Of a stretch of DNA of 26,271 nt, positions 1-26,271 are shown piece after piece (positions within the stretch are counted from its first letter, which is position 1; each line of letters opens with the position of its first letter). A program made the position numbers and the translations under genes. The stretch lies in the UHGV virus genome UHGV-0343389; one strand, 5' to 3'. This stretch comes from a virus. Under the pieces are notes generated by a model. That model was not told the DNA's origin and did not search any database. It was given only the letters and a program-made list of their open reading frames with translations.

Positions 1-1
1 G

Positions 2-10927: not shown

Positions 10928-10971
10928 TCCTGCAATAAAGGGGCCGAAGCCCCTTGTCTGATCCGCGAGGC

Positions 10972-11316: not shown

Positions 11317-11317
11317 C

Positions 11318-11755: not shown

Positions 11756-11806
11756 CTTCTTTCTCCATTAGTGGGTCTGTTACGACCCACAGGTTAATAA
11801 CAGGCG

Positions 11807-12799: not shown

Positions 12800-12807
12800 T
12801 TCCTCTC

Positions 12808-13521
12808 TTATTTGCCATAGAGCACTTCGGCCGCACTACGCTGGCCTTCATTACCACCGGTGACCATGCCATCTTCAGACATCGCCTTTCCGATTTTCAC
12901 GAACGTTTTGACCAGATCAGGGTGATTACCCAGCCCGGTGGTGTTCAGATATTCTTTGAGTTCAGGTGTCCCGAACTGGTCAAGCGCACGCTGTGCGGCG
13001 CTAAGGTTAGAAATCAACTTGTCGCCACCGATTTCTTTGTCAGCTTTTACATCCGCAGCCCACTGCTCGGTTGTTTTCTGCCAGGCTTCTGCCTGGCGCT
13101 GCTGAACACCTGCCAGAATCTTCGGATAAGCATCAACCAGCTTTTGCGCTTGCTCGTTGGTCAGGTTAAGTTCTCGCGCCACCGGCTCGAATTCCTTCAA
13201 CGCTTCTGTATCCAGCTCTACGCCTTCGGCAGCCTGAAACTCGTACTTCTCAGGCGCACCCTCTGGCTTCTTATCCTTTTCTGCTTCTTCGGTATTGGCT
13301 TTTTCAGCAGCAAGCTCTCCCTCAGTTTTCTGAGCTTCAGAACCTTTCTCAGAGTCAGTCCCCTGGGAGTTATCCTGCGACTGGGTTTGCTCCTGCATTT
13401 CACCCGAGCCCTGAGTGGTTTCAGTTGCTCCCGTTGAAGCTGTATCTGCCTGGCCACCTTCAGTGGATTGCTCATTGCAAAGACGGCGATACAGCAAACG
13501 CTCAAATAAATTCATGATCAC
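12808..13521 (-). CDS. Scaffolding protein
   Basis: 237 aa, strongly acidic, with low-complexity E/Q/T-rich N-terminal half. Lies between the portal and capsid genes with a 4-nt overlap to the upstream gene. Confidence 0.55.
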   Translation of the reverse strand: MIMNLFERLLYRRLCNEQSTEGGQADTASTGATETTQGSGEMQEQTQSQDNSQGTDSEKGSEAQKTEGELAAEKANTEEAEKDKKPEGAPEKYEFQAAEGVELDTEALKEFEPVARELNLTNEQAQKLVDAYPKILAGVQQRQAEAWQKTTEQWAADVKADKEIGGDKLISNLSAAQRALDQFGTPELKEYLNTTGLGNHPDLVKTFVKIGKAMSEDGMVTGGNEGQRSAAEVLYGK

Positions 13522-13814
13522 TCCTGTTCACTGGCCTCTTTGGCCATCTTCAAATACTGTTCAGGGCAATGCGCCATAACGCGCTGAAACAGCTCCAGCG
13601 CCAGATTGCGTTGCCCCTCATAAAATGCCATTGCCATAGCGTCCATCGGAGAGATAGCGGAAAACACCCGGCCTTTCTCCAGCACAGACCAGACAACGCG
13701 ACGCCCCTGTTCACTGCTCATGACAAAGCGAATGTCATCAATTTCACGCTGCGCCATGTCACGTTGCTTACGGGCGTTTTCTTCTTTCAGTTGATCGTCT
13801 TCGTAATCTGTCAT
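13518..13814 (-). CDS. Hypothetical small head-module protein
   Basis: 98-aa ORF translationally coupled to both the portal stop and the scaffold start. Confidence 0.45.
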   Translation of the reverse strand: MTDYEDDQLKEENARKQRDMAQREIDDIRFVMSSEQGRRVVWSVLEKGRVFSAISPMDAMAMAFYEGQRNLALELFQRVMAHCPEQYLKMAKEASEQE

Positions 13815-15490: not shown

Positions 15491-15504
15491 TTCAATGACT
15501 CCGG

Positions 15505-15711
15505 TTACTGACCAAGCAGCGTTTTACCGCTGGTATTAGCGGTTGATGTGTCGCCCTGAGAACCGGTAAGCAGCGTAGAACTACGACCAGCAGCAGCGCG
15601 ACGGCGACGAGTTTCTTCGTCGCGGGCATCAACAACGGCGGCATCCTGCTCCTGTGGTGCTGCCTGAACTTCTGGTGTTGCAGGCACTGATGGTGAGCTA
15701 CCCATGCACAT
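15505..15711 (-). CDS. Small hypothetical protein preceding portal
   Basis: 68-aa ORF with GGAG upstream. Low-complexity Ala/Arg/Thr-rich. Coding status uncertain. Confidence 0.3.
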   Translation of the reverse strand: MCMGSSPSVPATPEVQAAPQEQDAAVVDARDEETRRRRAAAGRSSTLLTGSQGDTSTANTSGKTLLGQ

Positions 15712-15739
15712 ATCAATGACTCCGTACGCAATTAAATTA

Positions 15740-15754
15740 TTACCAATTTAACCA
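15740..15754. promoter_or_regulatory. Half-site of the TTACC-N5-GGTAA operator (TTACCAATTTAACCA)
   Basis: Left half perfect, right half degenerate. Centre is exactly 62 bp from the perfect site at 15802-15816. Confidence 0.35.
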
Positions 15755-15801
15755 CATATGATTTATTTATCGTAGACAGTTGACATTTAACGCACGAATT
15801 A

Positions 15802-15816
15802 TTACCTTTCAGGTAA
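15802..15816. promoter_or_regulatory. Operator-like palindrome TTACCTTTCAGGTAA upstream of the portal operon
   Basis: Perfect 5+5 inverted repeat with 5-bp spacer, in the intergenic region between the portal operon and the tRNA island. Overlaps a TTGACA-containing candidate promoter. Confidence 0.6.
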
Positions 15817-16138
15817 CCAAAGAGTTCATTCCGGTTACTAACCTGACTGGCTTGTCGTTAAATTGAACAGGTGGAGTGAGCTTTTATTTTGAGCAGTACG
15901 GCGTATGGCACATGCGCCGATAGCGGTCTGGATACGTTTAAGGGGCACCCTCCCTTGCTCGGGCAAACGAACCAGGTAGCCGGAATGTGCAAGTCGAGCG
16001 GTTTTATTCCGCGCACGGGGATTCACCATCCAGGCGATTCGGTGTGACACCTCGGAAGAGACGAGGGTACAACGATGAGAGCATTTATGGAGCCGCGACA
16101 AAGTGTGGCGCCTTAACAGGCTAAGTGCTCTCAGCGTT

Positions 16139-16215
16139 GTGGCATTAGCTCAGCTGGACAGAGCAACCGCCTTCTAAGCGGTTGGTCGCAGGTTCGAATC
16201 CTGCATGCCACGCCA
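16139..16215 (+). tRNA. tRNA-Arg (anticodon UCU), phage-encoded
   Basis: Cloverleaf folded by hand: acceptor GTGGCAT/ATGCCAC, D-stem GCTC/GAGC, anticodon stem ACCGC/GCGGT with loop CTTCTAA, T-stem GCAGG/CCTGC with loop TTCGAAT, discriminator G and encoded CCA. 77 nt. Confidence 0.9.
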
Positions 16216-16259
16216 GAATCACGCCTAAGGACCGTGATGCCAGAAGTTCCAGGGGGCTT

Positions 16260-16301
16260 GGCGGTGATGGTTTCCCTTGAAGGACTATCACCGCCCTTTT
16301 T
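16260..16301 (+). terminator. Rho-independent terminator downstream of the tRNA
   Basis: GGCGGTGAT ... ATCACCGCC stem followed by TTTTT. Confidence 0.6.
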
Positions 16302-16379
16302 ACAGCAGGACGCCATTGCGATGACTTCATGCTGTAAACCAGTACAGCCACGGAAGGCATAACTCATTGCTTCCAGTTC

Positions 16380-16404
16380 GCCCGGTTCGCCGGGCATTTT
16401 TTTT
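16380..16404 (+). terminator. Rho-independent terminator (UUCG tetraloop)
   Basis: GCCCGG-TTCG-CCGGGC followed by ATTTTTTTT. Confidence 0.7.
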
Positions 16405-16429
16405 AGGTGAGATTATCAAGACAATTGAT

Positions 16430-16837
16430 ATGTTGGCTAAGTATCTAAATGAATGGCCATTAAAATATTCTCGTATCGTTCAGGCTGAAGACTGCATTTT
16501 TTATGGCGTTTTTGCTGGTAATGAAATGCATTACGAAGTAATTCAGAGTGAGGGGCTGACCGGGTTAACTCTTAGAGAAGACCATGGTACTAGCGTTACG
16601 TTCCATGACTGGATAACAGCACAACGTTCTGAAATGGAAAAAGGCGATGTGTTTGATATTTCTCGCTCTGTTTGCGCTAAAGCAAAAAGTGATAATGATT
16701 ACATGAGCGAACACTTATACAACATGAAGCTACAGTGCCTTGCCGAGGTGCTTGGTAAAAAAGCTATTGTCGATAAACAAGGCGCCATTAGCGAAGCAAA
16801 GGCAATAAATGCTGCATTTGATGAAATTATTTTCTAG
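16430..16837 (+). CDS. AT-rich cargo (moron) gene, hypothetical 135-aa soluble protein
   Basis: ORF on the opposite strand to all flanking phage genes. Markedly lower GC than neighbours. Bracketed by intrinsic terminators. No signal peptide or TM segment apparent. The ATG at 16430 is preferred because the upstream TTG extension runs through a terminator hairpin. Confidence 0.6.
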   Translation: MLAKYLNEWPLKYSRIVQAEDCIFYGVFAGNEMHYEVIQSEGLTGLTLREDHGTSVTFHDWITAQRSEMEKGDVFDISRSVCAKAKSDNDYMSEHLYNMKLQCLAEVLGKKAIVDKQGAISEAKAINAAFDEIIF

Positions 16838-16840
16838 CTC

Positions 16841-16854
16841 TGTGACATGTCACA
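16841..16854. repeat. Perfect 14-bp palindrome TGTGACATGTCACA
   Basis: Read directly from the sequence, 4 nt after the cargo-gene stop. Its 12-bp core recurs at 19293-19304. Confidence 0.5.
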
Positions 16855-16857
16855 AAC

Positions 16858-16886
16858 AGCCAGCCGATGAGCTGGCTTTGTTTTAT
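16858..16886 (+). terminator. Rho-independent terminator after the cargo gene
   Basis: AGCCAGC-cgatga-GCTGGCT followed by TTGTTTTAT. Lies between the convergent cargo gene and terL. Confidence 0.6.
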
Positions 16887-16927
16887 CCTCATCAGAGGAT
16901 ATCAACGACATTATCCCCACCAGCGGA

Positions 16928-18403
16928 TTAATCATAGGGATCGTAATCTGTGATGGCCTTGCCTTGCTGGTTCTGCTGCCCGGGAATTCGCAGACGCTTC
17001 GACACAGGGAAAGCAAACGTCAGCAGTAGCGCATCGCCTTTACCCGGCGAGCGCCCAAGCCGCTCCTTGATATCTTCCTTCGGTTCGATAACGATTTTAC
17101 CGTCCACTCGAACTTTGTACTCTGCCGCCGACAGGTCGTCCGCTGTTTCCTGGTCATCCAGCATGCCGCCCAGCCTCAGCCATGTCTTGCATGAGTTGAA
17201 CATCTCCCCGCGCTTATTGAGCATCTGCGGGTCAGTAGACGCGCCACCGAACGGAACAAGTTGCCATGTACGACCCCAGCCGTCACCGATTGACTTCAGA
17301 CCAGTTCCGTAACCGAAGTCGATGAACACTGCGTCAGCCTGGTACTGGTCTTCAAAGTCAGCGATACGCTTCGCCATAATCAGATCGTCAGTAGTCTTGT
17401 TGCCAGTCCACAGCACCTTACTGTGCAGCCCCTGCCGCAGGTATATCACCGCGTCATCAACGCCTGAGTATGCCGGGTCAACGCCGATTATCACCGGAGC
17501 ATGTGCAACCTGCGCAGCGGTTACCACCCGTTTCATTGCCTCATCAGTAAGACCGGTAGGGATAAACTGCAATTCAGATGCATCAGGGAATATGCCGCGC
17601 ACACGGATTTTAACGAAGTCGCTGTCTTCCCCGTAGTCATCAACCCATTTCTGCAACTGCTGTTTGTTAGTGCCTTCCACCGTCCGGCTGTCAATCTGCG
17701 CACACTTCCAGCGGTGTTTGTACTTGCGGAAACATTCACGGAAACGCCCGGTGTTACGCGTCGGGTTCCCGAACGCCACCCAGATGATTTCGGTGTCTTC
17801 GTCCGTCAGCGCACCCTCTGCTACCTCCCACACAAGATCGGCAATATTCGACGCTTCATCGAATACCACGATGATGCGTTTGCGCTCGTTGTGTAGTCCG
17901 GCGAATGCCTCAGTGTTGTGCTCAGACCAGGGGATTGCGTCAGCTCGCCACCGCTTGTCGTGCCCAGGGTCATTGCTGTACATCGCGGTAGCGGTACAGG
18001 TAAACCAGTCTTTCGTGATAGCAAGGTTTGACCACTTGATAATTTCCGGCCAGGTCTTCGTTCGTAGCTGGTTGTCGGTGTTGGCGGTCACCACGACCTT
18101 ACAATCCTCGCAAGTGGACATGCCCCAGTTGATCAGCATTGAGATAAATGCGGATTTACCAATACCGTGACCAGAAGCGCGTGCCAGCATAAGCGGCTGA
18201 TAGCGCGTCTCTGGATTCTGCAGGTGATCACGTATCTCTCGGAACGCATCAGCCTGCCATTGACGTGGGCCGGTAGCATGTGCCAGTTCAGTCCCCTCTT
18301 CCCCCCACGGGAACGCATAGAGAGCATAGCCAAGCGGATCGTGAGTGAACCCTGCAATATCCTCGATCAACTGCTCTTCAGGAGATAACGCTGTATCTGT
18401 CAC
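16928..18403 (-). CDS. Terminase large subunit
   Basis: 491 aa. Walker A-like GHGIGKS near the N-terminus. Acidic nuclease-like segment (VIIGVDPAYSG) in the C-terminal half. GTG start overlaps the terS stop (GTGA). Confidence 0.85.
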   Translation of the reverse strand: MTDTALSPEEQLIEDIAGFTHDPLGYALYAFPWGEEGTELAHATGPRQWQADAFREIRDHLQNPETRYQPLMLARASGHGIGKSAFISMLINWGMSTCEDCKVVVTANTDNQLRTKTWPEIIKWSNLAITKDWFTCTATAMYSNDPGHDKRWRADAIPWSEHNTEAFAGLHNERKRIIVVFDEASNIADLVWEVAEGALTDEDTEIIWVAFGNPTRNTGRFRECFRKYKHRWKCAQIDSRTVEGTNKQQLQKWVDDYGEDSDFVKIRVRGIFPDASELQFIPTGLTDEAMKRVVTAAQVAHAPVIIGVDPAYSGVDDAVIYLRQGLHSKVLWTGNKTTDDLIMAKRIADFEDQYQADAVFIDFGYGTGLKSIGDGWGRTWQLVPFGGASTDPQMLNKRGEMFNSCKTWLRLGGMLDDQETADDLSAAEYKVRVDGKIVIEPKEDIKERLGRSPGKGDALLLTFAFPVSKRLRIPGQQNQQGKAITDYDPYD

Positions 18404-18996
18404 TGATTACCATCCTGACGTTCTTTGAGTCGCTTCCTGGCTGCTGCTATGCGATCAGCAATTGTCACATTCACATTAACATCCAGGCGTTCTTTGAATG
18501 CGTTGACGTCGACGTGCTTACCAATCAGTTCGAGGTTCTTCACCTTGTCAGGCCATTTAATTTTTTTGAGGATTGTCTCTATCGAATCCTCGTTCATGTT
18601 CATGATGGTCGATGACAGATCAAAGCCGCTAAGCGTAGTGCGCCAGATTTTCGGCCACTCGCGGATTGGCTTAAGGCTCCCATCGTCGTTGAGGATGTCG
18701 ATCACGTCCATCTGGTCGATCTCCACCAGGCGCATGAGAACGTAATCAGCACTGACGCGCATTCGTTTGTTGCGCTCTTCCATCAGCTCGGCAATCCGTT
18801 TTTGAATGCGTTCATCGCGCATCATGACACTGGCTTTAACTGCCGCTGTATTTGGGGAGAATCCTGCGTTAATCGCTGCCTGAGTCTGGTTTTCAGGCGT
18901 TTTGATGTATGACTGGCAATAAGCCTCCTGCATTGCTGTTAGTGGCTTAAATTGCGTTGATTTGCGTTTATAGGTTTTAGGTTCAGCAGGCATCAT
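18400..18996 (-). CDS. Terminase small subunit
   Basis: Immediately upstream of terL and translationally coupled. Start trimmed to ATGATG at 18996 (SD GGTGG). The longer track ORF to 19074 reads through operator repeats and a terminator. Confidence 0.65.
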   Translation of the reverse strand: MMPAEPKTYKRKSTQFKPLTAMQEAYCQSYIKTPENQTQAAINAGFSPNTAAVKASVMMRDERIQKRIAELMEERNKRMRVSADYVLMRLVEIDQMDVIDILNDDGSLKPIREWPKIWRTTLSGFDLSSTIMNMNEDSIETILKKIKWPDKVKNLELIGKHVDVNAFKERLDVNVNVTIADRIAAARKRLKERQDGNQ

Positions 18997-19010
18997 AACC
19001 ACCGTGGTAA
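18996..19010. promoter_or_regulatory. Operator-like site TAACCACCGTGGTAA (one mismatch), overlapping the terS start
   Basis: Inverted repeat 18 bp (centre to centre) from the perfect site at 19014-19028. Confidence 0.45.
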
Positions 19011-19013
19011 TAG

Positions 19014-19028
19014 TTACCGTTGTGGTAA
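19014..19028. promoter_or_regulatory. Operator-like palindrome TTACCGTTGTGGTAA upstream of terS
   Basis: Perfect match to TTACC-N5-GGTAA, between an intrinsic terminator and the terS start codon. Confidence 0.6.
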
Positions 19029-19039
19029 TAGTACCATGC

Positions 19040-19065
19040 AAAATAAAGCCGCCATAGTTGGCGGC
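19040..19065 (-). terminator. Rho-independent terminator immediately upstream of the terminase operon
   Basis: On the minus strand: GCCGCC-AACTAT-GGCGGC followed by TTTATTTTG. Confidence 0.6.
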
Positions 19066-19070
19066 AGTAT

Positions 19071-19283
19071 TCAAAGTCCATCAAATTCATCGTAAAAACT
19101 CTCGTCAAGATACCCTTCCCATTTACCGCGAATGAAAATTACATCCTCGCCGCAAGGGTGCTGACTGTCGATAACTATATCCCTCCTGGCGCAACCATAC
19201 TTATGCATGAGAAATTTAACCTCTTTCGGAAAATTTGCTGAGTTATCTCTCATATCTTCAAGGTCGTAGCGTATTTTTGGCAT
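19071..19283 (-). CDS. Hypothetical 70-aa protein
   Basis: ORF with SD GAAGGTG. ATG at 19283 is preferred over the GTG at 19304 that lies inside the palindrome. Confidence 0.4.
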   Translation of the reverse strand: MPKIRYDLEDMRDNSANFPKEVKFLMHKYGCARRDIVIDSQHPCGEDVIFIRGKWEGYLDESFYDEFDGL

Positions 19284-19292
19284 AACACCTTC

Positions 19293-19304
19293 GTGACATG
19301 TCAC
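19293..19304. repeat. Perfect 12-bp palindrome GTGACATGTCAC (second copy)
   Basis: Lies between the zinc-ribbon gene stop and the 70-aa gene start. Confidence 0.5.
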
Positions 19305-19642
19305 ACTATTAATTTCGTTTCATGCCAGCCTTTGGTTACCCAGCATTGCGAGTCACCATTACACGGGCATGAATTCACAGGAACTCTCTCGCCGCACTTA
19401 CCGCAACGTTTTCTGCTGATCGATTTTATACGCCCGCGCACGCGTGCATCATCCTGGCGGATCAGTAACGCTATATACTCACCAAATTCGTAAGGCGCAC
19501 GCCCGGGGCGACGTGTGGCACAGTTACGCTCCAGCATTTCAATTTCCTGAGCATCAAGCACAATCTCCAGCTTACGTACACCAGATGCAGCTTGTCTGGC
19601 TCTCTGAGCGGCTTTGCGCTCTGCTGCTGATTTAGCCATCAA
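19301..19642 (-). CDS. Small basic zinc-ribbon protein, candidate transcriptional regulator
   Basis: 113 aa. Basic N-terminus (AERKAAQRARQ). C-terminal Cys cluster CGKCGERVPVNSCPCNGDSQC. Last gene before the terminator and terminase operon. Confidence 0.45.
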   Translation of the reverse strand: MMAKSAAERKAAQRARQAASGVRKLEIVLDAQEIEMLERNCATRRPGRAPYEFGEYIALLIRQDDARVRGRIKSISRKRCGKCGERVPVNSCPCNGDSQCWVTKGWHETKLIV

Positions 19643-19913
19643 TATTTACCTTTATCGCGTATACCTTTACCGGTTTATCGCCGAAGTGCGGATGTGTGAT
19701 TGTCTTGATTTCATAGCCGCCATACGGAACGTCAATTCTGCGGCTGGAATCGTCACGCTTCGGATATCCCTTTGTGATAATCAGGCGGTCATATTCCCGG
19801 AACATAATTCGCTTTTCCCAGTAGTCATTACACAGGCGATACTCTTCCGTTTTATCTCCGCGAATCATGGCATCGAAGTATTCACCTTTGACGGCAAGTT
19901 GCAGGTTAGCCAC
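19632..19913 (-). CDS. Hypothetical protein
   Basis: 93-aa ORF overlapping its neighbours by a few nt. No recognised motifs. Confidence 0.4.
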   Translation of the reverse strand: MANLQLAVKGEYFDAMIRGDKTEEYRLCNDYWEKRIMFREYDRLIITKGYPKRDDSSRRIDVPYGGYEIKTITHPHFGDKPVKVYAIKVNIDG

Positions 19914-20658
19914 GGTTAACCTCCTGCTGCTGTTCTGGCAGCGGCATCCAGTGGGTTACGTCATCTAGGATATTTCCTGATAAATACGTGAAAGCTCTGT
20001 ATTTTTTGTAATCAATTGGATTTACAACCCAGTTCCAATATGCGGCCACGATTTCACCTTGACTAAATGCCAGTAACATTTTGGTGTCTTCCGGCATTCG
20101 CTCACTACAGCTTATCCAACTATCCGGAGTTGCCGGAGAGTTGCCATTTACATCGAAGTTTGGCTCTGCGTCCTGAACCAGGAGGATGTAACCATTCTTG
20201 GCAGTATCAAGTTCTAACGCCTCGGTGACGGTGCCGAAATAGCGATTACCTAAATCAGCATCACAAGTGCTTACATCAATGGAAACTTCCATGCCTTCGA
20301 TTAATTCTGGCAAGTTGTAAGTTTGGTTTACAGGTTGGCCTCCCTGAAGCATGGCGGCGCGGTGACACCAGATAATCCAGCCAAGCGCCATATCCCATGC
20401 CATGTATTCTCTATCACCATTTTTTGCCCTGCGGCGATCTACAGATTCCCCGAAACGCTTCTCCATAAATAATTCATAGGCTGCCCGTTCATCCGATACT
20501 GCTGCCAGCGATGCCAGTGCAATTTTAAATGCGGTAAGTATGTTGTTAACCACACCTATTTCGAATGCTATTTCACTACATACAAACGATTTATCGTCTA
20601 TTATCGACTCAATTCCGGTAATCGTGTTCTGTAACCATTCTTTGGTAAGAGTATTCAT
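19906..20658 (-). CDS. Hypothetical protein with DUF551-like C-terminus
   Basis: 250 aa. C-terminal segment ending ...DDVTHWMPLPEQ resembles the conserved end of DUF551 phage proteins as recalled from memory. Confidence 0.45.
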   Translation of the reverse strand: MNTLTKEWLQNTITGIESIIDDKSFVCSEIAFEIGVVNNILTAFKIALASLAAVSDERAAYELFMEKRFGESVDRRRAKNGDREYMAWDMALGWIIWCHRAAMLQGGQPVNQTYNLPELIEGMEVSIDVSTCDADLGNRYFGTVTEALELDTAKNGYILLVQDAEPNFDVNGNSPATPDSWISCSERMPEDTKMLLAFSQGEIVAAYWNWVVNPIDYKKYRAFTYLSGNILDDVTHWMPLPEQQQEVNRG

Positions 20659-20660
20659 AA

Positions 20661-20851
20661 CTATTTCACCTTAATCTCAACATTTCGCAGCTTTAGCTCT
20701 ACTGGCAGGTCTGACTTTCCGGTTAATGCTAATGCGAGATTTTCTGGAGTAATGAGAGCAGTTATTGTTTTCCCCCTCGCCAGACGAATAATCATTCGTA
20801 TTTCGCGATCGTCACATGCTCCTGGTCGAACAATTGATATTTGTCCGTTCA
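20661..20851 (-). CDS. Hypothetical small protein
   Basis: ATG start (MNGQ...) placed from the translation next to the stop of the upstream gene. Track extension to 20894 not favoured. Confidence 0.35.
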
Positions 20852-20853
20852 TC

Positions 20854-21138
20854 TCACTCTCCTTTGATGCGAATACCAGCGGCGCGGGAATCATTCCATC
20901 GCTTTACTTCTTCACGAATTACGTCAATGCATTCTTTCGAATCCATTTGGAAATCTTCATCGAAACCGCTTTCTGGATGCGCTCCTTCAATTCTGCAAAT
21001 GGGAATATACCCAGCAGCCTCGCGATGAATTAGTGCATCATCACCATCAAATCGGCCCTCTCCATATTCGAGCGACCACACACCACACGTTGCTTTCTCT
21101 GCCTTTTCACGCAGTGCCTGATAGTCAATCTTGCTCAT
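20854..21138 (-). CDS. Hypothetical protein
   Basis: 94-aa acidic ORF starting MSKIDYQALREKAEK. Confidence 0.4.
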   Translation of the reverse strand: MSKIDYQALREKAEKATCGVWSLEYGEGRFDGDDALIHREAAGYIPICRIEGAHPESGFDEDFQMDSKECIDVIREEVKRWNDSRAAGIRIKGE

Positions 21139-21139
21139 G

Positions 21140-21439
21140 TCACATCACCCTGAAGCCGTTGCATTTACGTAAAAAATCGCAGATATAGCCCTTCATTTTT
21201 TCGTGCCAATCTCGATCATTCCCATTGCACCAACCATCAGGTGGAGTCCAGTTTTCTATCAGAGCAGCCATTTTCTTTGCTTTCGCCGGAGTAGCTGTTG
21301 CGGTATCGCAGTAATGACGAGTGTCAACCAACGTATCCATACCATCGATATCAAGTACGCAAAACCATGTGTGATTCGGCATTTCAACAGATGGTATTTG
21401 TTGCCCACGTCGACGTTTATCAATAAGACATACAGTCAT
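21140..21439 (-). CDS. Hypothetical protein
   Basis: 99-aa ORF, Cys/Trp-rich. Confidence 0.4.
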   Translation of the reverse strand: MTVCLIDKRRRGQQIPSVEMPNHTWFCVLDIDGMDTLVDTRHYCDTATATPAKAKKMAALIENWTPPDGWCNGNDRDWHEKMKGYICDFLRKCNGFRVM

Positions 21440-22014
21440 GGTTCCACCTTCTCTATTTGCTTAAGACCGTCTCTCACTGCATTAAGTACGCGTTCCAGAT
21501 ACTGGTATTTCGGGTTTGGTATCGTTGGCCAGTTGGCATACCACGGATCATCACCAAAGAGATTCAGTAGTTTGTTACCGACGCCGAAACAGCAGCAGCT
21601 TTCTTTTACGTCATCGGCGTTTTCCGCCTCGTCCCACATTTCGCGAGCCTGTACAGCGTCGATTTCTCTCTCTCTTCGTAACTTTATGATTTCTGACTTC
21701 ACGAAAAGCAGATTTGCATCGTTGTCATCGTCGACCGTGCTTAGCAGTTGAGGGTCGAAATTGTCGATTAGATAGTCGTTGCTGACTCGCTTAATGAACG
21801 TCTGCACATCATCACCGCCCATAGCAAACCAAGCCGCAGTCCACGCTTTTCCGTAGCTGGTGATGGTGATTCTTCCCTTACCAGGTTCGTAGTTTTCAAT
21901 CATCACTCGAACCGGATCTAGTCGCTCTGCACCGGTTATAACGAATGACAACACATCAATCTTTTCAACCGTTACACTCACTGGTTGCCTCCTTTGCGAA
22001 GCTGTTCCGCACAA
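21436..22014 (-). CDS. Hypothetical protein (start uncertain; possible ATG at 21906)
   Basis: ORF track begins with TTG and overlaps the upstream gene. Acidic C-terminal half. Confidence 0.35.
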   Translation of the reverse strand: MCGTASQRRQPVSVTVEKIDVLSFVITGAERLDPVRVMIENYEPGKGRITITSYGKAWTAAWFAMGGDDVQTFIKRVSNDYLIDNFDPQLLSTVDDDNDANLLFVKSEIIKLRREREIDAVQAREMWDEAENADDVKESCCCFGVGNKLLNLFGDDPWYANWPTIPNPKYQYLERVLNAVRDGLKQIEKVEP

Positions 22015-22538
22015 TGCAGCAGGGCGTCCGTCGCATATTTAAGACTCACTAGCTCACCATCATCCATTCCCGCGAGATTCGCGTGTTTAACGAACGCCGA
22101 GCAAAGGTCATTAAACGCCTGCGCCCGTACTTCAGCCAGAAAAGCATCGGTGGCTGGGGTTTCCGGCAATGATCCGTCAACCAGTTCTATTGTTGTTCTG
22201 AATCGGGAATTCGACACAACGCGATAAGTCAGGTTCGGCATTCTGGCTGCCACTTGCATCTCAAACTCCTCTCCAGATTCCAGCCCGGCTGCACGGGCGT
22301 AATCAAGCGGACTTCTGACAGCCCCTGAATCTTCGCCGCCCCAGTAAATCAGGTTCGACTTCAACGCCTCATTCTCCGACGCCATCGCATTAGCACGCAC
22401 CAGTTGCACTTCCAGTTGCGTTGCCAAATCGCTGATCAGCTTTGCCACACTACGCATATCAACGGCACCACATTCTGCTTTCAGTTCCGAAGCCATCTCA
22501 TGCCCGGCGTAAACTAACCCTTTGATATTACTTTCCAT
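21978..22538 (-). CDS. Hypothetical protein
   Basis: 186-aa ORF with SD GAGGGT 5 nt upstream of the ATG. Confidence 0.45.
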   Translation of the reverse strand: MESNIKGLVYAGHEMASELKAECGAVDMRSVAKLISDLATQLEVQLVRANAMASENEALKSNLIYWGGEDSGAVRSPLDYARAAGLESGEEFEMQVAARMPNLTYRVVSNSRFRTTIELVDGSLPETPATDAFLAEVRAQAFNDLCSAFVKHANLAGMDDGELVSLKYATDALLHCAEQLRKGGNQ

Positions 22539-22599
22539 CTTTACCCTCGCTTATCCACATAACTTATTGATTACATTGATAACTAAAAAGATCGTCGAT

Positions 22600-22944
22600 T
22601 CAGAACTCTTCGATGTTCCAGCCACCACCTGCTTTCTTTGGTTTAACCGTTACCCCGATGATTCGGAACGGATACTGATCTGCGGCGACTTTGGTTTTCA
22701 CTCTGGCGTCGTCGGTCCAGAAACCTTTCACTTCGTGCAGTTCCATCTCGCCGGTGGCGAGCATCACAGCAAAATCGGGCGTATAGAACGTGTTGTCAGC
22801 TAACCGCAGCTTGATACCCTCGAATCGATACCAGGCGATTTCCCCTGCACGTTTACGCTGCTCAAGGTGCTGGCAATACGCAGATTCTGTTTTGTTCATC
22901 TGGCCTGTTTTGAGTCGACCAAGAGCCTGTATCTGTTTTCTCAT
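22600..22944 (-). CDS. Putative PD-(D/E)xK-type nuclease (DUF1064-like)
   Basis: 114 aa containing ...YTPDFAVMLATGEMELHEVKG..., i.e. PD followed by E-x-K at nuclease-like spacing. First gene after an operator-flanked promoter. Confidence 0.5.
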   Translation of the reverse strand: MRKQIQALGRLKTGQMNKTESAYCQHLEQRKRAGEIAWYRFEGIKLRLADNTFYTPDFAVMLATGEMELHEVKGFWTDDARVKTKVAADQYPFRIIGVTVKPKKAGGGWNIEEF

Positions 22945-22947
22945 GAT

Positions 22948-22962
22948 TTACCTCTGAGGTAA
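22948..22962. promoter_or_regulatory. Operator-like palindrome TTACCTCTGAGGTAA
   Basis: Perfect site just upstream of the 22944 start codon. Centre 62 bp from the site at 23010-23024. Confidence 0.6.
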
Positions 22963-23009
22963 TTAAAAACCACATAAGACACGAAATCAATAGATTTTAG
23001 AATATTTTA

Positions 23010-23024
23010 TTACCTAGAAGGTAA
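23010..23024. promoter_or_regulatory. Operator-like palindrome TTACCTAGAAGGTAA
   Basis: Perfect site. Together with 22948-22962 it flanks a candidate minus-strand promoter. Confidence 0.6.
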
Positions 23025-23061
23025 TCATCGAGACGTAAAAAAATGCGCCATCGCGCTGGTA

Positions 23062-23862
23062 TTACTTGATAAATCCTGCCGCCTTTCCCCGCCTGTATTC
23101 TTCCATCAGCCACTGCGCCGGTGTTATTCCCCCCAGGGTGGCGGCGTTAGGCATGCACCCGAAACTTCGCCCTGGTGGATGGTAAACGTCTCTCCCTGTG
23201 TCCGGAGGTGTACTCATGGGTTCTGGCTTTGCCTGTATGCTGATCACCGGATCGGGTATCTGCTGTCCGGAAGCCACCTTTTTCGCCCAATCATCGAGCA
23301 GCCTGCGCGCGTGTTTCTCAACCTCAATCTCGCTAAGCTGGCGCTGATACATTGCACGGCGTGTATCACATACGACCCAGTACATAACCGGATGCCGCCA
23401 CGGGAATCTTTCGGGACCACCAGGATATAAACTTTTTTCCTTGCTGTACCGGTGAAACTCCGCCATCACATCGTCAATGGTGACGCCAAGAACCATCTTG
23501 CTGTCTTTACACCACTTGATGAATTGCCCTGGCGACGGCCAGAACGGAGATTCACTGGCGCGGGCGTGGCGCATACCAGCAGAAACCTGTTCACGGGTAC
23601 GTATTCCCCCTTCGGCAAACGCAGCAATCCACTGCTGTTTTGCAGCAACTTCCTGCTCTGGCGTCTTCAGGTTGGTTACCACTGCCGCCGGAAACAGTTG
23701 TTTCAGCTGTTTGAAAAGGGCATCAACAAGCCTCTCTGCTGACATGTTCACCACATTGTCATTGTTGACGTACTGATGCTCATAACCTGACATGCGAGGA
23801 AGGGCTTCTCCGTCACGGTTTTGTATCGCGGTAAAAACGTTGTTCACAAGAAATCCTCCCAC
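23062..23862 (-). CDS. P: Replication protein P-like (DnaB helicase loader)
   Basis: Block ...LFPAAVVTNLKTPEQEVAAKQQWIAAFAEGGIRTREQVSAGMRHARASESPFWPSPGQFIKWC... aligns by eye with lambda P (...FPASLANRDQNEVNEIRRQWVLAFRENGITTMEQVNAGMRVARRQNRPFLPSPGQFVAWC...) as recalled from memory. Follows the O-like gene. Confidence 0.8.
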   Translation of the reverse strand: MGGFLVNNVFTAIQNRDGEALPRMSGYEHQYVNNDNVVNMSAERLVDALFKQLKQLFPAAVVTNLKTPEQEVAAKQQWIAAFAEGGIRTREQVSAGMRHARASESPFWPSPGQFIKWCKDSKMVLGVTIDDVMAEFHRYSKEKSLYPGGPERFPWRHPVMYWVVCDTRRAMYQRQLSEIEVEKHARRLLDDWAKKVASGQQIPDPVISIQAKPEPMSTPPDTGRDVYHPPGRSFGCMPNAATLGGITPAQWLMEEYRRGKAAGFIK

Positions 23863-24635
23863 GCTTCAGGGCTGTTCCAGTGCGGAACGTTGTTATCAGG
23901 TAATGTTGATTGCTTCTGTCTGCTAATCTGCAGCCGCCTTGCCAGCTTCTGCTCCCACTGTGCCTGATGGTATGCCTTACCCTCAGCCATCCAGTAAATT
24001 CTGAACTCTGCAAGTTCCTGTGCCGTTGGCAGACTGTCCAGGTAGATCCCCTGCAATGAGCTTTTCCGAAGAAAGTCATCTGATGGCTGCCATTGTTCAT
24101 GCATGACAAATTTGCCTAATTGCCCTGGCCCACCAGGAGGAACAAAGTTATTCATCACGGCGTTGTTTGCGCCGGGGTCATGAGGAACAGAATCCCCGGT
24201 TTTTGTCCTGCTCTCCCTCTCTTGGTTAAATGACTGGTTATATGACTGGTTCTGGATCCCGTTTTTGGGATCATTCAACATCCCGTTTTTGGGTATATTC
24301 CCGTTTTCGGTAACATTACCGTTTTCGGGTTCATTACCCCCTTCCCGGTTGCCTTTAATGTTCCCGTTTTTGGTTATATTAAGAGAGAAAACCCGCACTC
24401 TTTTCGTCGCTCCCTTTCTCTCTCCGGTATCTGAAATAAGCCCCATTTTCATGAGCGATATAAGCCCGGCCTGCACGGTTTTTTTATTCAGGCAAGTGTC
24501 TTTAACGAGGCGTTCTATGCTGGGGTAGCAGAGGTTATATTCATCGGCTCTGTCAGCCATCGAGAGCAGTATGAGCTTTAATGACGAGCTACCTGGATCT
24601 GTCTCCCAGGCCCAATCTGTTGCATGTCTGCTCAT
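23844..24635 (-). CDS. Replication initiator (lambda O-like organisation) containing the origin iterons
   Basis: N-terminal winged-helix-like segment (SLKLILLSMADRADEYNLCYPSIERLVKDTC...GLI). Central Asn/Gly-rich repeat region encoded by DNA iterons. SD GGAG upstream of the ATG. Confidence 0.7.
   Translation of the reverse strand: MSRHATDWAWETDPGSSSLKLILLSMADRADEYNLCYPSIERLVKDTCLNKKTVQAGLISLMKMGLISDTGERKGATKRVRVFSLNITKNGNIKGNREGGNEPENGNVTENGNIPKNGMLNDPKNGIQNQSYNQSFNQERESRTKTGDSVPHDPGANNAVMNNFVPPGGPGQLGKFVMHEQWQPSDDFLRKSSLQGIYLDSLPTAQELAEFRIYWMAEGKAYHQAQWEQKLARRLQISRQKQSTLPDNNVPHWNSPEAWEDFL
24257..24376. repeat. Origin-like iterons (about 5-6 copies of TCCCGTTTT(T/C)GG) followed by an AT-rich stretch, inside the O-like gene
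   Basis: Direct repeats at 24257, 24281, 24299, 24317 and 24361, with a degenerate copy at 24341 and a possible extra copy near 24192. Resembles the ori-lambda arrangement. Confidence 0.65.
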
Positions 24636-24650
24636 GATTAATCTCCGCTA

Positions 24651-24851
24651 TCAGCTTGAATGTTGTGGGGAGGAATTAATCATGATCTGCTTAATCTCTG
24701 CCCTGATACGACGGTTTGATTCCATGGTGCACTCAACACAGTGTCCGTTGTAAACCCAGCGTTCACTGTCATGTCCGTGCTTACATGTTTTTCCGGTGTA
24801 GTAGCGTTTAAGTCCGCGCTTTGCGGCATCAATACGTGTAATGATTTCCAT
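24651..24851 (-). CDS. Small Cys/His-rich (zinc-finger-like) protein, early operon
   Basis: About 66 aa from the ATG at 24851. Motif TCKHGHDSERWVYNGHCVEC. Occupies the cII-equivalent position between the Cro-like and O-like genes. Confidence 0.45.
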   Translation of the reverse strand: MEIITRIDAAKRGLKRYYTGKTCKHGHDSERWVYNGHCVECTMESNRRIRAEIKQIMINSSPQHSS

Positions 24852-24931
24852 GGTAATCCCTGTTATTAGTATTGGGATTACGGTTATTTTGTGCTGACAC
24901 AAAAAAAAGATCAACCATATTTGGTTTTTTG

Positions 24932-24946
24932 TTACCTTTAAGGTGC
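24932..24946. promoter_or_regulatory. Operator-like site TTACCTTTAAGGTGC (right half imperfect)
   Basis: Lies between the cro-proximal terminator and the zinc-finger gene. Confidence 0.4.
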
Positions 24947-24956
24947 GAATAGATAT

Positions 24957-24979
24957 GAAAAGACCGCCGGATGGCGGTC
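24957..24979 (-). terminator. Intrinsic terminator downstream of the Cro-like gene (tR1-like position)
   Basis: GACCGCC-GGAT-GGCGGTC perfect hairpin followed on the minus strand by TTTTCATATCT. Confidence 0.55.
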
Positions 24980-25001
24980 TACAGAGGGTTGTGGCTGGAT
25001 A

Positions 25002-25232
25002 TCATGAGTAGAAGAAGTATGCCAGTTCTGCTTTTGAGCGCAGCCATTGTCTTGTTTTACAGGCTTTAAAAAGCCCATTCATCAATACTTTACCTGGCAT
25101 TTTGCGCTTACCTGTTAAGTGAGTCTGGATATAGTGACTCGTCGTTCCGGCTTCCTGTGCGAAGGCTTCACGCTCATCCGGAGTAAGTGCAAGCCAGTGC
25201 TTTTTGAAATCGAAATGTCCGTTATCGCTCAT
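25002..25232 (-). CDS. Cro-like HTH regulator
   Basis: 76 aa with HTH-like segment (REAFAQEAGTTSHYIQTHLTGKRKM). Divergent from the repressor gene across an operator-rich region and followed by the replication genes. Confidence 0.55.
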   Translation of the reverse strand: MSDNGHFDFKKHWLALTPDEREAFAQEAGTTSHYIQTHLTGKRKMPGKVLMNGLFKACKTRQWLRSKAELAYFFYS

Positions 25233-25268
25233 AGCTATTGCCTGATATTTATTTCAGATAATAAATAT

Positions 25269-25283
25269 TCACCCATAAGGTAA
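25269..25283. promoter_or_regulatory. Operator-like site TCACCCATAAGGTAA (OR region)
   Basis: One of three sites in the 154-bp divergent intergenic region. Left half has one mismatch. Confidence 0.45.
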
Positions 25284-25299
25284 CAAAAATCAAGGATAG

Positions 25300-25314
25300 T
25301 TACCTATGAGGTGC
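25300..25314. promoter_or_regulatory. Operator-like site TTACCTATGAGGTGC (OR region)
   Basis: Right half imperfect. Centre 17 bp from the next site and 31 bp from the previous one. Confidence 0.45.
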
Positions 25315-25316
25315 AT

Positions 25317-25331
25317 TTACCTGTTGGGTAA
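25317..25331. promoter_or_regulatory. Operator-like palindrome TTACCTGTTGGGTAA (OR region)
   Basis: Perfect site in the cro/cI intergenic region. Confidence 0.6.
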
Positions 25332-25386
25332 TATTGCTTTAAATTGAATCATCTACTGATTCATATATGAGGCGATTTTCCAGAAA

Positions 25387-25971
25387 ATGAAAAGTATCCA
25401 GGACGTCCGCAGGCAAAATCTCAACGACTTGATCGACCGTGAATTCAATGGTGTTCAGACGCGGATGGCAGAAAAACTTGGAACTCAGGCAAATCTGGTA
25501 AACCGCTGGGCTCTTGGCAAGAAGGTTATCGGCGACCAGGTTGCGCGAAAAATTGAAGCTGCCGCCAATAAACCCCGTAACTGGCTTGATATCGATCGCT
25601 CGCTTTCTCAGGAAGGTTTTCAGCCTGTCGGCCCAAGCGACATTGGTCAGCTGGCGGCTCACAACCTGGAACGCTGGATGAGCGAAAGCCGCGACCTTTC
25701 AACACAGGGAAAACTTCACCGCGCATCCGGCGTCGCCCAGGTGACAATCAGCCGCCTGTTAAACAATGAGGTTAGCGTTTCCATTTCCACCCTGGAGAAT
25801 GTGGCATCCGCATTCGGGCGTCACGGCTATGAATTACTGATTCACCCGCACGACCCTGCGACCATCAACTATGACCGCTCGCGCTACGCATTGTTACCCG
25901 AAACCGAGAAAGCAAAGATCGAAAGTTACATTGAATTTGTCATCAACCAGAACGAAAAAAGCAAACAATAA
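25387..25971 (+). CDS. CI-like immunity repressor with two HTH (XRE-type) domains and no recognisable S24 peptidase domain
   Basis: 194 aa. HTH 1 near residues 20-45 (QTRMAEKLGTQANLVNRWALGKK). HTH 2 near residues 110-140 (LHRASGVAQVTISRLLNNEVSVS). No Ser/Lys autocleavage module evident. Divergent from the Cro-like gene. Confidence 0.6.
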   Translation: MKSIQDVRRQNLNDLIDREFNGVQTRMAEKLGTQANLVNRWALGKKVIGDQVARKIEAAANKPRNWLDIDRSLSQEGFQPVGPSDIGQLAAHNLERWMSESRDLSTQGKLHRASGVAQVTISRLLNNEVSVSISTLENVASAFGRHGYELLIHPHDPATINYDRSRYALLPETEKAKIESYIEFVINQNEKSKQ

Positions 25972-25991
25972 AACTATAGTTTTCAGCAAGT

Positions 25992-26018
25992 AAGCCGCCT
26001 CATGGCGGCTTTTTTATT
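25992..26018 (+). terminator. Rho-independent terminator after the repressor gene
   Basis: AAGCCGCC-TCAT-GGCGGCTT followed by TTTTATT. Confidence 0.7.
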
Positions 26019-26028
26019 GCCAGATAGA

Positions 26029-26043
26029 TTACCTTACGGGTAA
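26029..26043. promoter_or_regulatory. Operator-like palindrome TTACCTTACGGGTAA (OL-like, upstream of -35)
   Basis: Perfect site. Centre 62 bp from the site at 26091-26105. Confidence 0.6.
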
Positions 26044-26062
26044 TTTTTTTAACTCATATCTA

Positions 26063-26091
26063 TTGACACCAAACCAAATAAGCATAATTAT
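26063..26091 (+). promoter_or_regulatory. Sigma-70-like promoter (TTGACA, 16-17 bp spacer, TAATTA/AATTAT), pL-like
   Basis: Consensus -35 hexamer at 26063-26068 and an AT-rich -10 at about 26085-26091. Flanked by two operator-like sites. Drives the plus-strand gene starting at 26125. Confidence 0.55.
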
Positions 26092-26105
26092 TACCTCAAC
26101 GGTAA
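26091..26105. promoter_or_regulatory. Operator-like palindrome TTACCTCAACGGTAA overlapping the -10/start region
   Basis: Perfect site immediately downstream of or overlapping the -10 element. Confidence 0.6.
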
Positions 26106-26124
26106 CAGACCGAGGTAACAAGTT

Positions 26125-26271
26125 ATGCAGTGGAAAATCATCAACGGTTGGTACTGCGTTACTGCATGCGGATTCATGAGCTGGAAGTTCCGCACCTTAC
26201 AGGAAGGCATTAAGTGGGCTTTCGTCAGCAAAGAAGCTCGCGATGTGGCCAACGATAACCCAGCGGACGCC
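26125..26271 (+). CDS. 3'-truncated hypothetical protein, first gene of the operator-controlled leftward (pL-like) operon
   Basis: ATG at 26125 with SD GAGGT about 8 nt upstream. Open to the window end (MQWKIINGWYCVTACGFMSWKFRTLQEGIKW...). Not Arg-rich, so not N-like. Confidence 0.45.
   Translation, partial: MQWKIINGWYCVTACGFMSWKFRTLQEGIKWAFVSKEARDVANDNPADA

Follow-up and report, generated by a model that had tools for sequence, protein, structure and literature searches.

The palindrome TTACC-N5-GGTAA, which recurs along the window (the whole 26,271-nt stretch of virus genome UHGV-0343389 that was analysed), most likely represents the operator of an epsilon15/phiV10-type repressor, Rep, encoded at 25387-25971. 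Judged from sequence comparison, the palindromes are real, functional and already known elements that precede almost every lytic transcription unit as predicted Rep sites. According to megablast, the window is 96-97% identical to phiV10-like phages, identifying it as a phiV10/epsilon15-like (Uetakevirus) E. coli prophage. Seven perfect sites are present, at 15802, 19014, 22948, 23010, 25317, 26029 and 26091, with a chance expectation of 0.02, in line with the 0.02-0.03 of the original prediction, and none of 100 shuffles gave seven. With these seven copies, TTACC/GGTAA is the commonest 5-Nx-5 palindrome of the window, versus at most three for any other. Sites with one mismatch lie at 18996 and 25269, and sites with two at 24932 and 25300. 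Two-mismatch matches are frequent in the window by chance (31 observed versus 7 expected); 24932 and 25300 were accepted as weak sites because they keep the same positions in relatives, in the form nCACC-N5-GGTAA. The sequence at 15740 (TTACCAATTTAACCA) has four mismatches and therefore falls outside the near-match definition used in the prediction itself, only its TTACC half being present. Eleven of the 12 predicted sites thus stand, seven perfect and four as near-matches, while 15740 is reduced to a half-site. The long structural genes are indeed free of sites, with no match at zero or one mismatch in 1-15700.

The motif was followed in 19 relatives (4 phage genomes and 15 prophages) from many enterobacterial genera, with Rep proteins 41-100% identical to that of the window. 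Every relative with a homolog of the repressor carries the motif, and it keeps the same places: the pL pair, the rep/cro triple, the middle-operon pair, the terS tandem and one portal-side site are all at orthologous positions. Rep-bearing relatives hold 135 perfect sites in 450 kb; relatives that have no Rep homolog contain none (292 kb), nor do 100 kb of E. coli K-12, so the density in host or unrelated DNA is not similar. The consensus reads ATTACC-N5-GGTAAT with an AT-rich spacer, the flanking A and the flanking T each being found in 64% of cases. As predicted, the half-sites are conserved and the spacer is variable; across the sites of the relatives TTACC/GGTAA remains unchanged although Rep diverges down to 41% identity. 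An intrinsic terminator precedes each unit, and at pL, the cro promoter, the middle operon and terS the operators overlap the -10/+1 region or the core spacer of sigma-70-type promoters. The half-site flanks also look like -10 elements (GGTAAT, ATTACC) and the sites are always on promoters, as would be expected if a host factor bound the palindromes or if they served a structural role in promoters or packaging, with only a coincidental link to the phage repressor. This is very hard to credit given the absence of perfect sites from the 100 kb of K-12 and from the 292 kb of Rep-less relatives, the invariant half-sites with drifting spacers, the classic operator layout of the three rep/cro sites, and the retention of the motif in hosts ranging from Escherichia, Salmonella and Klebsiella to Rahnella, Pantoea and Samsonia.

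The predicted repressor gene (rep, 25387..25971, + strand) encodes 194 aa. A phmmer search against the PDB aligned Rep over its full length with chain 5D50_A, the Rep of SPC32H (E 3.5e-42, query 1-190 to chain 2-197), and Rep is also homologous to 5D4Z. Both structures belong to the Rep-Ant switch that decides between lysis and lysogeny in Salmonella phage SPC32H (Kim & Ryu 2013; Kim et al. 2016). Identity is about 43% to SPC32H Rep and 43% to the epsilon15 repressor, and reaches 99% to the p40 region of phiV10 (tblastn). Pfam detects an HTH_3 domain at 106-147 and a weak Cro-like HTH at 21-61; HTH families are all that it reports over the 194 aa, with no S24 self-cleavage domain of the RecA-stimulated lambda type. 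The original description of a ‘tandem HTH’ CI-like protein thus holds at the level of the fold, but the second HTH-like domain of the homologous structure is assigned to dimerisation, while the N-terminal domain binds DNA (PMC9986798). By analogy with that structure, the Rep of the window would bind DNA through its N-terminal domain, dimerise through the HTH-like domain in the middle and use its C-terminal domain for tetramerisation and Ant binding (PMC9986798). SPC32H Rep is reported to bind palindromic sites as a tetramer (PMC9638917), in which the DNA-binding pairs come from different dimers and which is inactivated by the LexA-controlled antirepressor Ant (PMC9638917, PMC9986798); the structural mechanism of SPC32H repression has been described as little characterised (PMC9986798). 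The ORF21 repressor of phage ZX5 has the same sequence as phiV10 ORF40; its overexpression stops the lytic cycle and reduces holin and endolysin mRNA by 99.97-99.99% (PMC9782041). The window does not include the ant gene. PhiV10 has an Ant homolog, p24, with 88% identity to SPC32H Ant and a CTGT-N8-ACAG LexA box in front of it. The prediction that a phage regulator of the dimeric DNA-binding type has its operators at the palindromes is supported.

The divergent rep and cro genes enclose a tripartite operator (OR). Nearest to rep is a perfect site (25317..25331, TTACCTGTTGGGTAA), conserved in all Rep-bearing relatives, followed at 17 bp by the conserved middle site (25300..25314, two mismatches, TTACCTATGAGGTGC), which relatives keep as (G/T)nACC-N5-GGTAA at the same spacing. 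The third site (25269..25283, one mismatch, TCACCCATAAGGTAA), also conserved in relatives, lies in the spacer of a cro promoter-like sequence, TTGTTA-17-TATTAT (25286-25258, - strand), which spans it. Beyond cro, its terminator (24961-24980) is followed by the weak two-mismatch operator at 24932..24946, ahead of the replication genes and found as nCACC-N5-GGTAA in most relatives. The cro-like gene itself (25002..25232, - strand) encodes 76 aa assigned to phrog_35, ‘transcriptional repressor’ (E 5.6e-13). Its product accompanies Rep in all relatives, and in keeping with the invariant half-site the recognition helices of both proteins are conserved, AGTTSHYIQTHL in the Cro-like protein and NL(V/I)(N/S)RW in Rep. 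The Cro-like protein probably reads the same operators too. The middle and late sites might even serve mainly this protein during lytic growth, for tuning or shutdown, with Rep acting essentially at rep/cro and pL. In lambdoid phages, a repressor and Cro sharing operators is the rule, and such a role would fit both the PHROG membership and a co-occurrence with the motif as strict as that of Rep, with a conserved helix. We regard this as possible, though rather unlikely: the epsilon15 annotators gave the sites to the repressor, the perfect and paired sites fit the expectation for a tetrameric Rep, and overexpression of Rep abolishes late transcripts, possibly indirectly (PMC9782041). As Rep and Cro always co-occur, the comparison of relatives cannot assign the middle and late sites to either one, and the two readings are not mutually exclusive.

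On the other side of rep, an intrinsic terminator (25992..26011, + strand) stands directly before the pL cassette. The pL-like promoter, TTGACA-17-AATTAT (26063..26091, + strand), matches the consensus at 10 of 12 positions and is conserved in relatives. Its distal operator (26029..26043) is perfect, conserved and located 19 nt upstream of the -35. The proximal one (26091..26105), likewise perfect and conserved, lies 62 bp from the first and covers the -10 end and +1, the final T of the -10 being the first T of the operator. The middle operon is built in the same way. The replication genes close with a terminator, annotated at the corresponding position of phiV10. Directly behind it comes a perfect distal operator (23010..23024), then the promoter TTGATT (22990-22985), 17 nt, TTTAAT (22967-22962), on the - strand (22962..22990), whose CTATTGA and spacing are conserved in 19 cassettes, and a perfect, conserved proximal operator (22948..22962) with the GAGG ribosome-binding site of a DUF1064 gene (ATG at 22944) in its spacer. 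Of the three 62-bp pairs originally proposed, 22948/23010 and 26029/26091 are therefore genuine, and 15740/15802 combines a half-site with a full site. Since the pL and middle promoters are paralogous cassettes, the equal spacing of the two pairs is partly a matter of common descent. In a histogram of site spacings, 27 cases fall in a peak at 17-20 bp, 21 in one at 61-63 bp and 9 in one at 73-76 bp.

At terS, a terminator (19048-19065) immediately precedes an extended -10 promoter without a -35, TGgTACTAT (19028..19036, - strand), found as TGnTA(C/G)TAT at terS in nearly all relatives displayed across the region. A perfect operator (19014..19028) begins at the last -10 base; 18 bp away, a second one with one mismatch (18996..19010) ends 2 nt before the terS start codon. 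This layout corrects the start of terS, of which a 224-aa long version in some records takes in the terminator and the two operators. A 113-aa phrog_536 ‘transcriptional regulator’ adjoins terS.

The portal side is different. The perfect operator at 15802..15816, with the portal operon on one side and the tRNA unit on the other, covers the -10/+1 region of a conserved promoter that is directed away from portal and towards tRNA-Arg (15780-15808, + strand; TTGACA at 15780-15785, 17 nt, TACCTT at 15803-15808). The form TTGAC(A/C)-17-TACCYT is shared by the window with epsilon15, BUCT554 and L008, and the other relatives have a recurrent GTCAAT block; an overlapping alternative promoter is TAGACA-18-AATTAT at 15773-15802. 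In front of the gp3-portal operon lies a strongly conserved late-promoter block, TATGTGGTTAAATTGGTAATAAT (15736..15758, - strand), which contains the 15740 half-site exactly 62 bp from 15802. As for the two sites predicted in front of the portal operon, 15802 is thus perfect yet sits on the divergent promoter facing tRNA-Arg, and 15740 is a half-site only. With the portal -10 as we read it, some 80 bp separate 15802 from the likely portal promoter downstream. At three promoters, that of the portal operon in the window and those of the tail-fibre and lysis genes in phiV10, our own counts place the full operator about 67-79 bp upstream of the presumed -10, which is not a simple occlusion position.

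These three late promoters have no -35 and have a conserved CATAT(G/A)TGGTT box in common. This box (CATATGTGGTT), lacking a -35 beside it, may mark the target of an activator; the missing -35 and the common box hint at an additional regulator, and extra positive control, in the sense of some cascade, is possible. The original proposal that a lambda-style cascade through Q is absent is supported by Pfam, which detected neither a Q nor an N antiterminator in the 19 products of the window that were scanned, middle-operon genes included. A single late promoter is not the case, as separate terminator-promoter modules stand before terS and the portal operon. The distal late operator could be an activator site from which Rep or Cro, bound around -67 to -79, would recruit RNA polymerase in class I style, and the operator network would then give positive plus negative control. 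Although the recurrent upstream position of full operators and the lack of a -35 at the portal, tail-fibre and lysis promoters would agree with this, we consider it improbable: the distances (about -67, -70 and -79 by our own counts) are out of helical register with each other, and the portal-side operator lies on the -10/+1 of a divergent consensus-type promoter, which is enough to explain its presence.

In the preferred reading, with Rep as the main ligand, the lytic genome would be divided into short units, each with an intrinsic terminator, its own host sigma-70 promoter and one or more operators. At pL and the middle operon, one operator would cover -10/+1 and a second, 62 bp (about six helical turns) upstream, would complete a pair bracketing the promoter. 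The two tandem operators of terS, 18 bp apart, would fill the space from the extended -10 to the start codon, and three would lie between the divergent rep and cro genes. In a lysogen, Rep is expected to sit on these operators and shut each unit directly, a single tetramer possibly bridging both members of a 62-bp pair, as we propose. Upon induction, SOS-controlled Ant would split the tetramer and free all promoters together. From the sequence we infer that Rep physically binds the individual sites, bridges or loops them and represses the late units directly; direct gating by Rep is plausible for most units and doubtful for the portal operon. More tentatively, and with somewhat less than even confidence, Rep tetramers may clamp promoters through phased operators while the scattered operators have frozen the half-site genus-wide. 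One tetramer may bridge operators about six (61-63 bp) or about seven (73-74 bp) helical turns apart, and some 12-15 operators over every unit, including terminase, tRNA gene, tail fibre and lysis, may have fixed the half-site. In that case, a whole lineage of temperate phages would be under the flat control of a single repressor and would lack a swappable immunity module.

The idea of the operator network is already known. The epsilon15 record AY150271.2 holds seven ‘protein_bind / repressor / lysogeny’ features (12-27, 2931-2947, 19895-19911, 32479-32494, 32554-32570, 32616-32632 and 35906-35922), each coincident with a motif match and together preceding terS, the portal operon, the tailspike, pL and the middle operon. 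The epsilon15 network was reportedly predicted by Kropinski et al. in 2007 (Virology 369:234). Because of that prediction, and of the structural study of the repressor, current understanding is unchanged. Epsilon15 resembles the window in having the 17-bp palindrome ATTACC-N5-GGTAAT before terS, gp3-portal and the middle operon, with two or three copies on the pL side, and 62-bp pairs at 32555/32617 and 35907/35969. It differs in a third pL site 76 bp further on, and its record marks seven of about 14 sites, with no feature at rep/cro, at the proximal middle site or at the lysis site. The SPC32H Rep-Ant switch shares a full-length homologous repressor without an S24 domain and the same operators in the same places, with an Ant homolog and LexA box in the phiV10 lineage; in contrast, the Rep of the window is only about 43% identical and ant lies elsewhere.

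Compared with more distant systems, lambda has tripartite OR and OL, cooperative binding and OL-OR looping. As in lambda CI/Cro, the repressor and cro genes of the window are divergent and separated by three operators, the palindromes have conserved halves, and a second set of operators follows the repressor gene at a pL-like promoter. Unlike in lambda, Rep has no S24 protease domain, the 19 window products that were scanned include no N or Q by Pfam, and operators are also found at the replication, middle, terminase and tRNA/portal units; therefore, the immunity determinants do not form a compact exchangeable module. The stoperators bound by gp71 of mycobacteriophage L5 are asymmetric 13-mers, oriented with transcription and blocking elongation. 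They too are numerous and genome-wide, late regions included, whereas the sites of the window are palindromic, on promoters and absent from the interior of long operons. Rco of the Bacillus plasmid pLS20 is a tetrameric looping repressor regulated by an antirepressor, with an N-terminal HTH and a C-terminal tetramerisation fold resembling that of SPC32H Rep (PMC9986798), but it belongs to another element and host, and its looping involves several tetramers across longer distances.

The predicted repressor sites of this temperate phage reach terminase and other late units, beyond an early-gene cascade, and their scattering suggests why operator specificity stays invariant across the genus. Prophages like phiV10 and epsilon15 are common in E. 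coli, and in annotating them the motif can be relied on to mark promoters and the borders of transcription units. In IMG/VR, 409 stretches encode a relative of the window Rep, the best 80 of the 409 being 99-100% identical.

The network of TTACC-N5-GGTAA palindromes is real, lies far beyond chance and is conserved genus-wide. All seven perfect sites of the original prediction (15802, 19014, 22948, 23010, 25317, 26029 and 26091) are present at these coordinates, with 0.02 expected and none of 100 shuffles giving seven. In a de novo census of 5-Nx-5 palindromes, the motif leads the window by a wide margin, with seven copies versus three or fewer of any other. Among the proposed near-matches, 18996 and 25269 hold with one mismatch and 24932 and 25300 with two, the latter pair appearing among many chance matches at that level in the window scan. 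The remaining candidate, 15740 (TTACCAATTTAACCA), was rejected with four mismatches, as it matches in the left half only. Because of this, two true 62-bp pairs are left (22948/23010 and 26029/26091) rather than the three proposed, the third consisting of a full site and a half-site. Repressor-bearing relatives hold 135 perfect sites in 450 kb, while none occurs in 292 kb of related loci without the repressor, nor in host DNA, of which 100 kb from E. coli K-12 was checked. On these control counts, chance was rejected as the explanation of the sites, and so was a host factor as their binder. A logo built from 116 distinct sites has a flanking A and T in 64% of cases and an AT-rich spacer. The tRNA was the sole Rfam match in the window, so the sites coincide with no regulatory RNA of a known family.

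By megablast, positions 15400-26271 share 96-97% identity with the phiV10-like podophages PAS61, phiv142-3, TL-2011b and phiV10, which represent the genus Uetakevirus, and about 80% with epsilon15 and SPN1S. Along the minus strand, in descending coordinates, a cro-like gene is followed by DnaT-like and lambda-P-like replication genes, small 'middle' genes, terS and terL. Downstream of terL come a short plus-strand insert and then gp3, the portal and the virion genes, on the minus strand. At the window's right end, the repressor gene lies on the plus strand, as does the gene that opens the left operon.

The motif was mapped in epsilon15, phiV10, SPC32H, BUCT554 and 15 prophages found via the large terminase, one genome per species, with hosts including Klebsiella, Citrobacter, Buttiauxella, Rahnella, Pantoea, Erwinia, Samsonia and Scandinavium. 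Site conservation was borne out, as every locus encoding the repressor Rep (41-100% identity) keeps the motif at the same five places, with the TTACC/GGTAA half-site invariant over this whole range. Loci without a Rep homolog, from Pseudomonas and others, have no perfect site. In the Pseudomonas loci L019 and L023, the terminase is about 50% identical and both Rep and the TTACC motif are absent. Each carries TCTGCG-N5-CGCAGA three times (L019 2067-3290; L023 1174-2410), with two copies about 46 bp apart and the third 1.2 kb off; every copy lies far upstream of terS, while terS and the portal gene themselves have none. From its arrangement, this set looks like a conventional compact operator set. 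A third Pseudomonas locus, L020, has no dominant palindrome. The Rep-less Pseudomonas relatives are a useful negative control, not a covariation test.

The 194-aa product of 25387-25971 (plus strand) aligns over its full length with Rep of SPC32H (PDB 5D50, E 3.5e-42) and shares 99% identity with the phiV10 p40 region (tblastn). Rep binds DNA through its N-terminal domain, dimerises through the middle one and uses the C-terminal one for tetramerisation and Ant binding (PMC9986798). Because of this published layout, the Pfam HTH_3 match at residues 106-147 of the window Rep is assigned to the dimerisation domain and the DNA-reading HTH to the N-terminus. On DNA, Rep is a tetramer in which the two domains on one palindrome belong to different dimers, and the antirepressor Ant, itself tetrameric, dismantles it (PMC9638917). 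No S24 domain was found in the window Rep by Pfam, and the window holds no ant gene. In phiV10, p24 is 88% identical to SPC32H Ant and has upstream of it a CTGT-N8-ACAG LexA box adjoining an operator, both of which fit the published Ant-based induction mechanism. The ZX5 repressor ORF21 has the same sequence as phiV10 ORF40; its overexpression in ZX5 abolished free phage and reduced holin and endolysin mRNA by 99.97-99.99%, in a study that mapped no operators (PMC9782041). An IMG/VR profile search with the Rep alignment gave only 99-100% identical copies among the best 80 loci listed. The divergent 76-aa gene (25002-25232, minus strand) falls in a PHROG of transcriptional repressors and is the predicted Cro analogue. 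The recognition helices of both proteins are conserved in step with the half-site, namely NL(V/I)(N/S)RW in Rep and AGTTSHYIQTHL in Cro.

The pL promoter (26029-26105) and the middle promoter in front of the DUF1064 gene (22948-23024) form a paralogous pair of cassettes, about 90 bp long and identically laid out. Each starts with a terminator, followed by ATTACC-N5-GGTAAT, 19 nt, the -35 element CTATTGA, 17 nt and a -10 element that ends on the first T of a second ATTACC-N5-GGTAA, after which the ribosome-binding site and ATG follow. When 19 cassettes are aligned without gaps, the only information peaks fall on the four half-sites, on the -35 element and within parts of the -10 region. Because the cassettes are paralogous, the identical 62-bp spacing is partly inherited and not independently selected. 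Variant cassettes of some relatives have the proximal site 12 bp further on, giving a spacing of 73-74 bp, and others have the two in tandem around the -10 element, at a spacing of 18 bp. Overall, the distance from one site to the next falls mainly into three classes, 17-20 bp with 27 cases, 61-63 bp with 21 and 73-76 bp with nine; 62 and 74 bp correspond to about six and seven helical turns. As this helical spacing suggests, a Rep tetramer could touch both paired sites from one face of the DNA.

At terS, a terminator (19048-19065) is followed by the extended -10 element TGgTACTAT and two tandem operators reaching up to the start codon. An extended -10 of the form TGnTA(C/G)TAT recurs in nearly all relatives displayed across this region. 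The 224-aa ORF in the phiV10 and PAS61 records (TTG at 19074) would span the terminator, the promoter and both operators. Since these elements precede ATG 18996, that codon is the real terS start; homology and conservation begin there, giving a protein of 198 aa as annotated in epsilon15. Ribosome-binding sequences were also observed inside proximal operators, with GAGG in the spacer of 22948 (22950-22962) and GGTGG in 18996 (18996-19006); the mRNA leaders of these first genes therefore consist almost wholly of operator sequence.

The original prediction also inferred that a single repressor directly gates early, middle and late operons, without a lambda-style Q cascade. Its core, one regulator's sites at nearly every unit boundary and no Q-type cascade, is largely right, but the portal operon is not clearly gated. 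Judged by site anatomy, direct repression appears well founded for the cro promoter, pL, the middle operon, terS and the tRNA unit. The post-cro unit has a conserved, putatively weak operator at 24932, after the cro terminator, with no promoter found beside it.

On the portal side, the perfect operator 15802 overlies the -10/+1 region of a predicted plus-strand promoter, TTGACA-17-TACCTT, directed away from the portal operon. This element was checked in the window, epsilon15, BUCT554 and the related locus L008; other relatives have a recurring GTCAAT block. An overlapping alternative is TAGACA-18-AATTAT. The promoter opens a plus-strand unit in the terL-portal interval (15780-16295), with a leader of about 330 nt, a tRNA-Arg(UCU) (16139-16215, plus strand) and a strong terminator (16260-16295, plus strand), beyond which lies an Sf6-gp66-like gene (16367-16837). 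As the promoter under the operator leads to the tRNA, this phage tRNA for AGA codons would be repressor-controlled. The same tRNA is annotated in SPC32H, whereas epsilon15 has an annotated RNase III site at this position.

Towards the portal gene lies a very conserved block, TATGTGGTTAAATTGGTAATAAT (15758-15736, minus strand), which has no -35 element, holds the 15740 half-site and may contain an extended -10. Before the portal operon, the box CATAT(G/A)TGGTT is followed by 7 nt and a -10 element, an arrangement shared with the phiV10 tail-fibre and lysis genes, where a full operator also stands well upstream. In all three cases a -35 element is lacking and, by manual count, the operator is centred about 67 to 79 bp upstream of where transcription presumably starts. 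Control of these promoters may involve bridging to a proximal weak half-site, or an additional activator, and the second conserved box in the late promoters would leave room for positive control. Copies of (CA)TAT(G/A)TGGTT just upstream of a -10 element were seen at the window portal (15750-15758) and middle (22968-22976) promoters, in minus-strand sense, and at the phiV10 tail-fibre and lysis promoters (locus L003, 20923 and 24741); a variant follows the post-cro operator (24913-24920, minus-strand sense). The box may be the target of an activator, for which the 113-aa phrog_536 protein and the left operon's PerC-like and AlpA-like proteins would be candidates. In Pfam and PDB searches, the 113-aa gene beside terS matched no known late-regulator family.

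Part of this network had been annotated before. The epsilon15 record AY150271.2 has 'protein_bind / repressor / lysogeny' features at seven places: before terS (12-27), before gp3-portal (2931-2947), before the tailspike gene (19895-19911), on the pL side (32479-32494, 32554-32570 and 32616-32632) and before the middle operon (35906-35922). All seven coincide with TTACC-N5-GGTAA matches, so the dispersed network, with the repressor as its assigned regulator, was already on record. Unannotated matches in epsilon15 were found by motif scan in the rep/cro region, at the proximal middle site and in the lysis cassette. The 2007 epsilon15 genome paper (Kropinski) reportedly gave the consensus as ATTACCWDWWNGGTAAT, with which the 116-site logo agrees; a literature text search for the string gave no match. 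Because the epsilon15 sites are annotated and the repressor family is structurally characterised, the window presents a known feature in another phiV10-like prophage. The genus-wide helical phasing, the paralogous promoter cassettes, the predicted Rep-controlled tRNA unit and the frozen half-site may be new, as modest additions.

A one-mismatch site, TTACC(C/T)TAAAGGTAT, is kept a short way upstream of the gene for integrase in phiV10 (L003 26870), epsilon15 (L002 26882) and SPC32H (L004 26960). A related variant, also with one mismatch, takes its place in BUCT554. This suggests that the repressor contacts int/attP as well. Besides the operator, an unrelated second perfect palindrome of 12 bp, GTGACATGTCAC, marks operon 3' ends. 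The copy at 16842-16853 stands some 75 nt beyond the terL stop codon and adjoins a hairpin terminator; that at 19293-19304 overlaps the stop codon of the 113-aa gene classed as a phrog_536 'transcriptional regulator'. At least one of the two is present in 16 of the 19 relatives and both are in eight. The palindrome is without annotation in the epsilon15 record. The long virion operon of epsilon15, SPC32H and phiV10 ends with an extra copy, directly ahead of its terminator.
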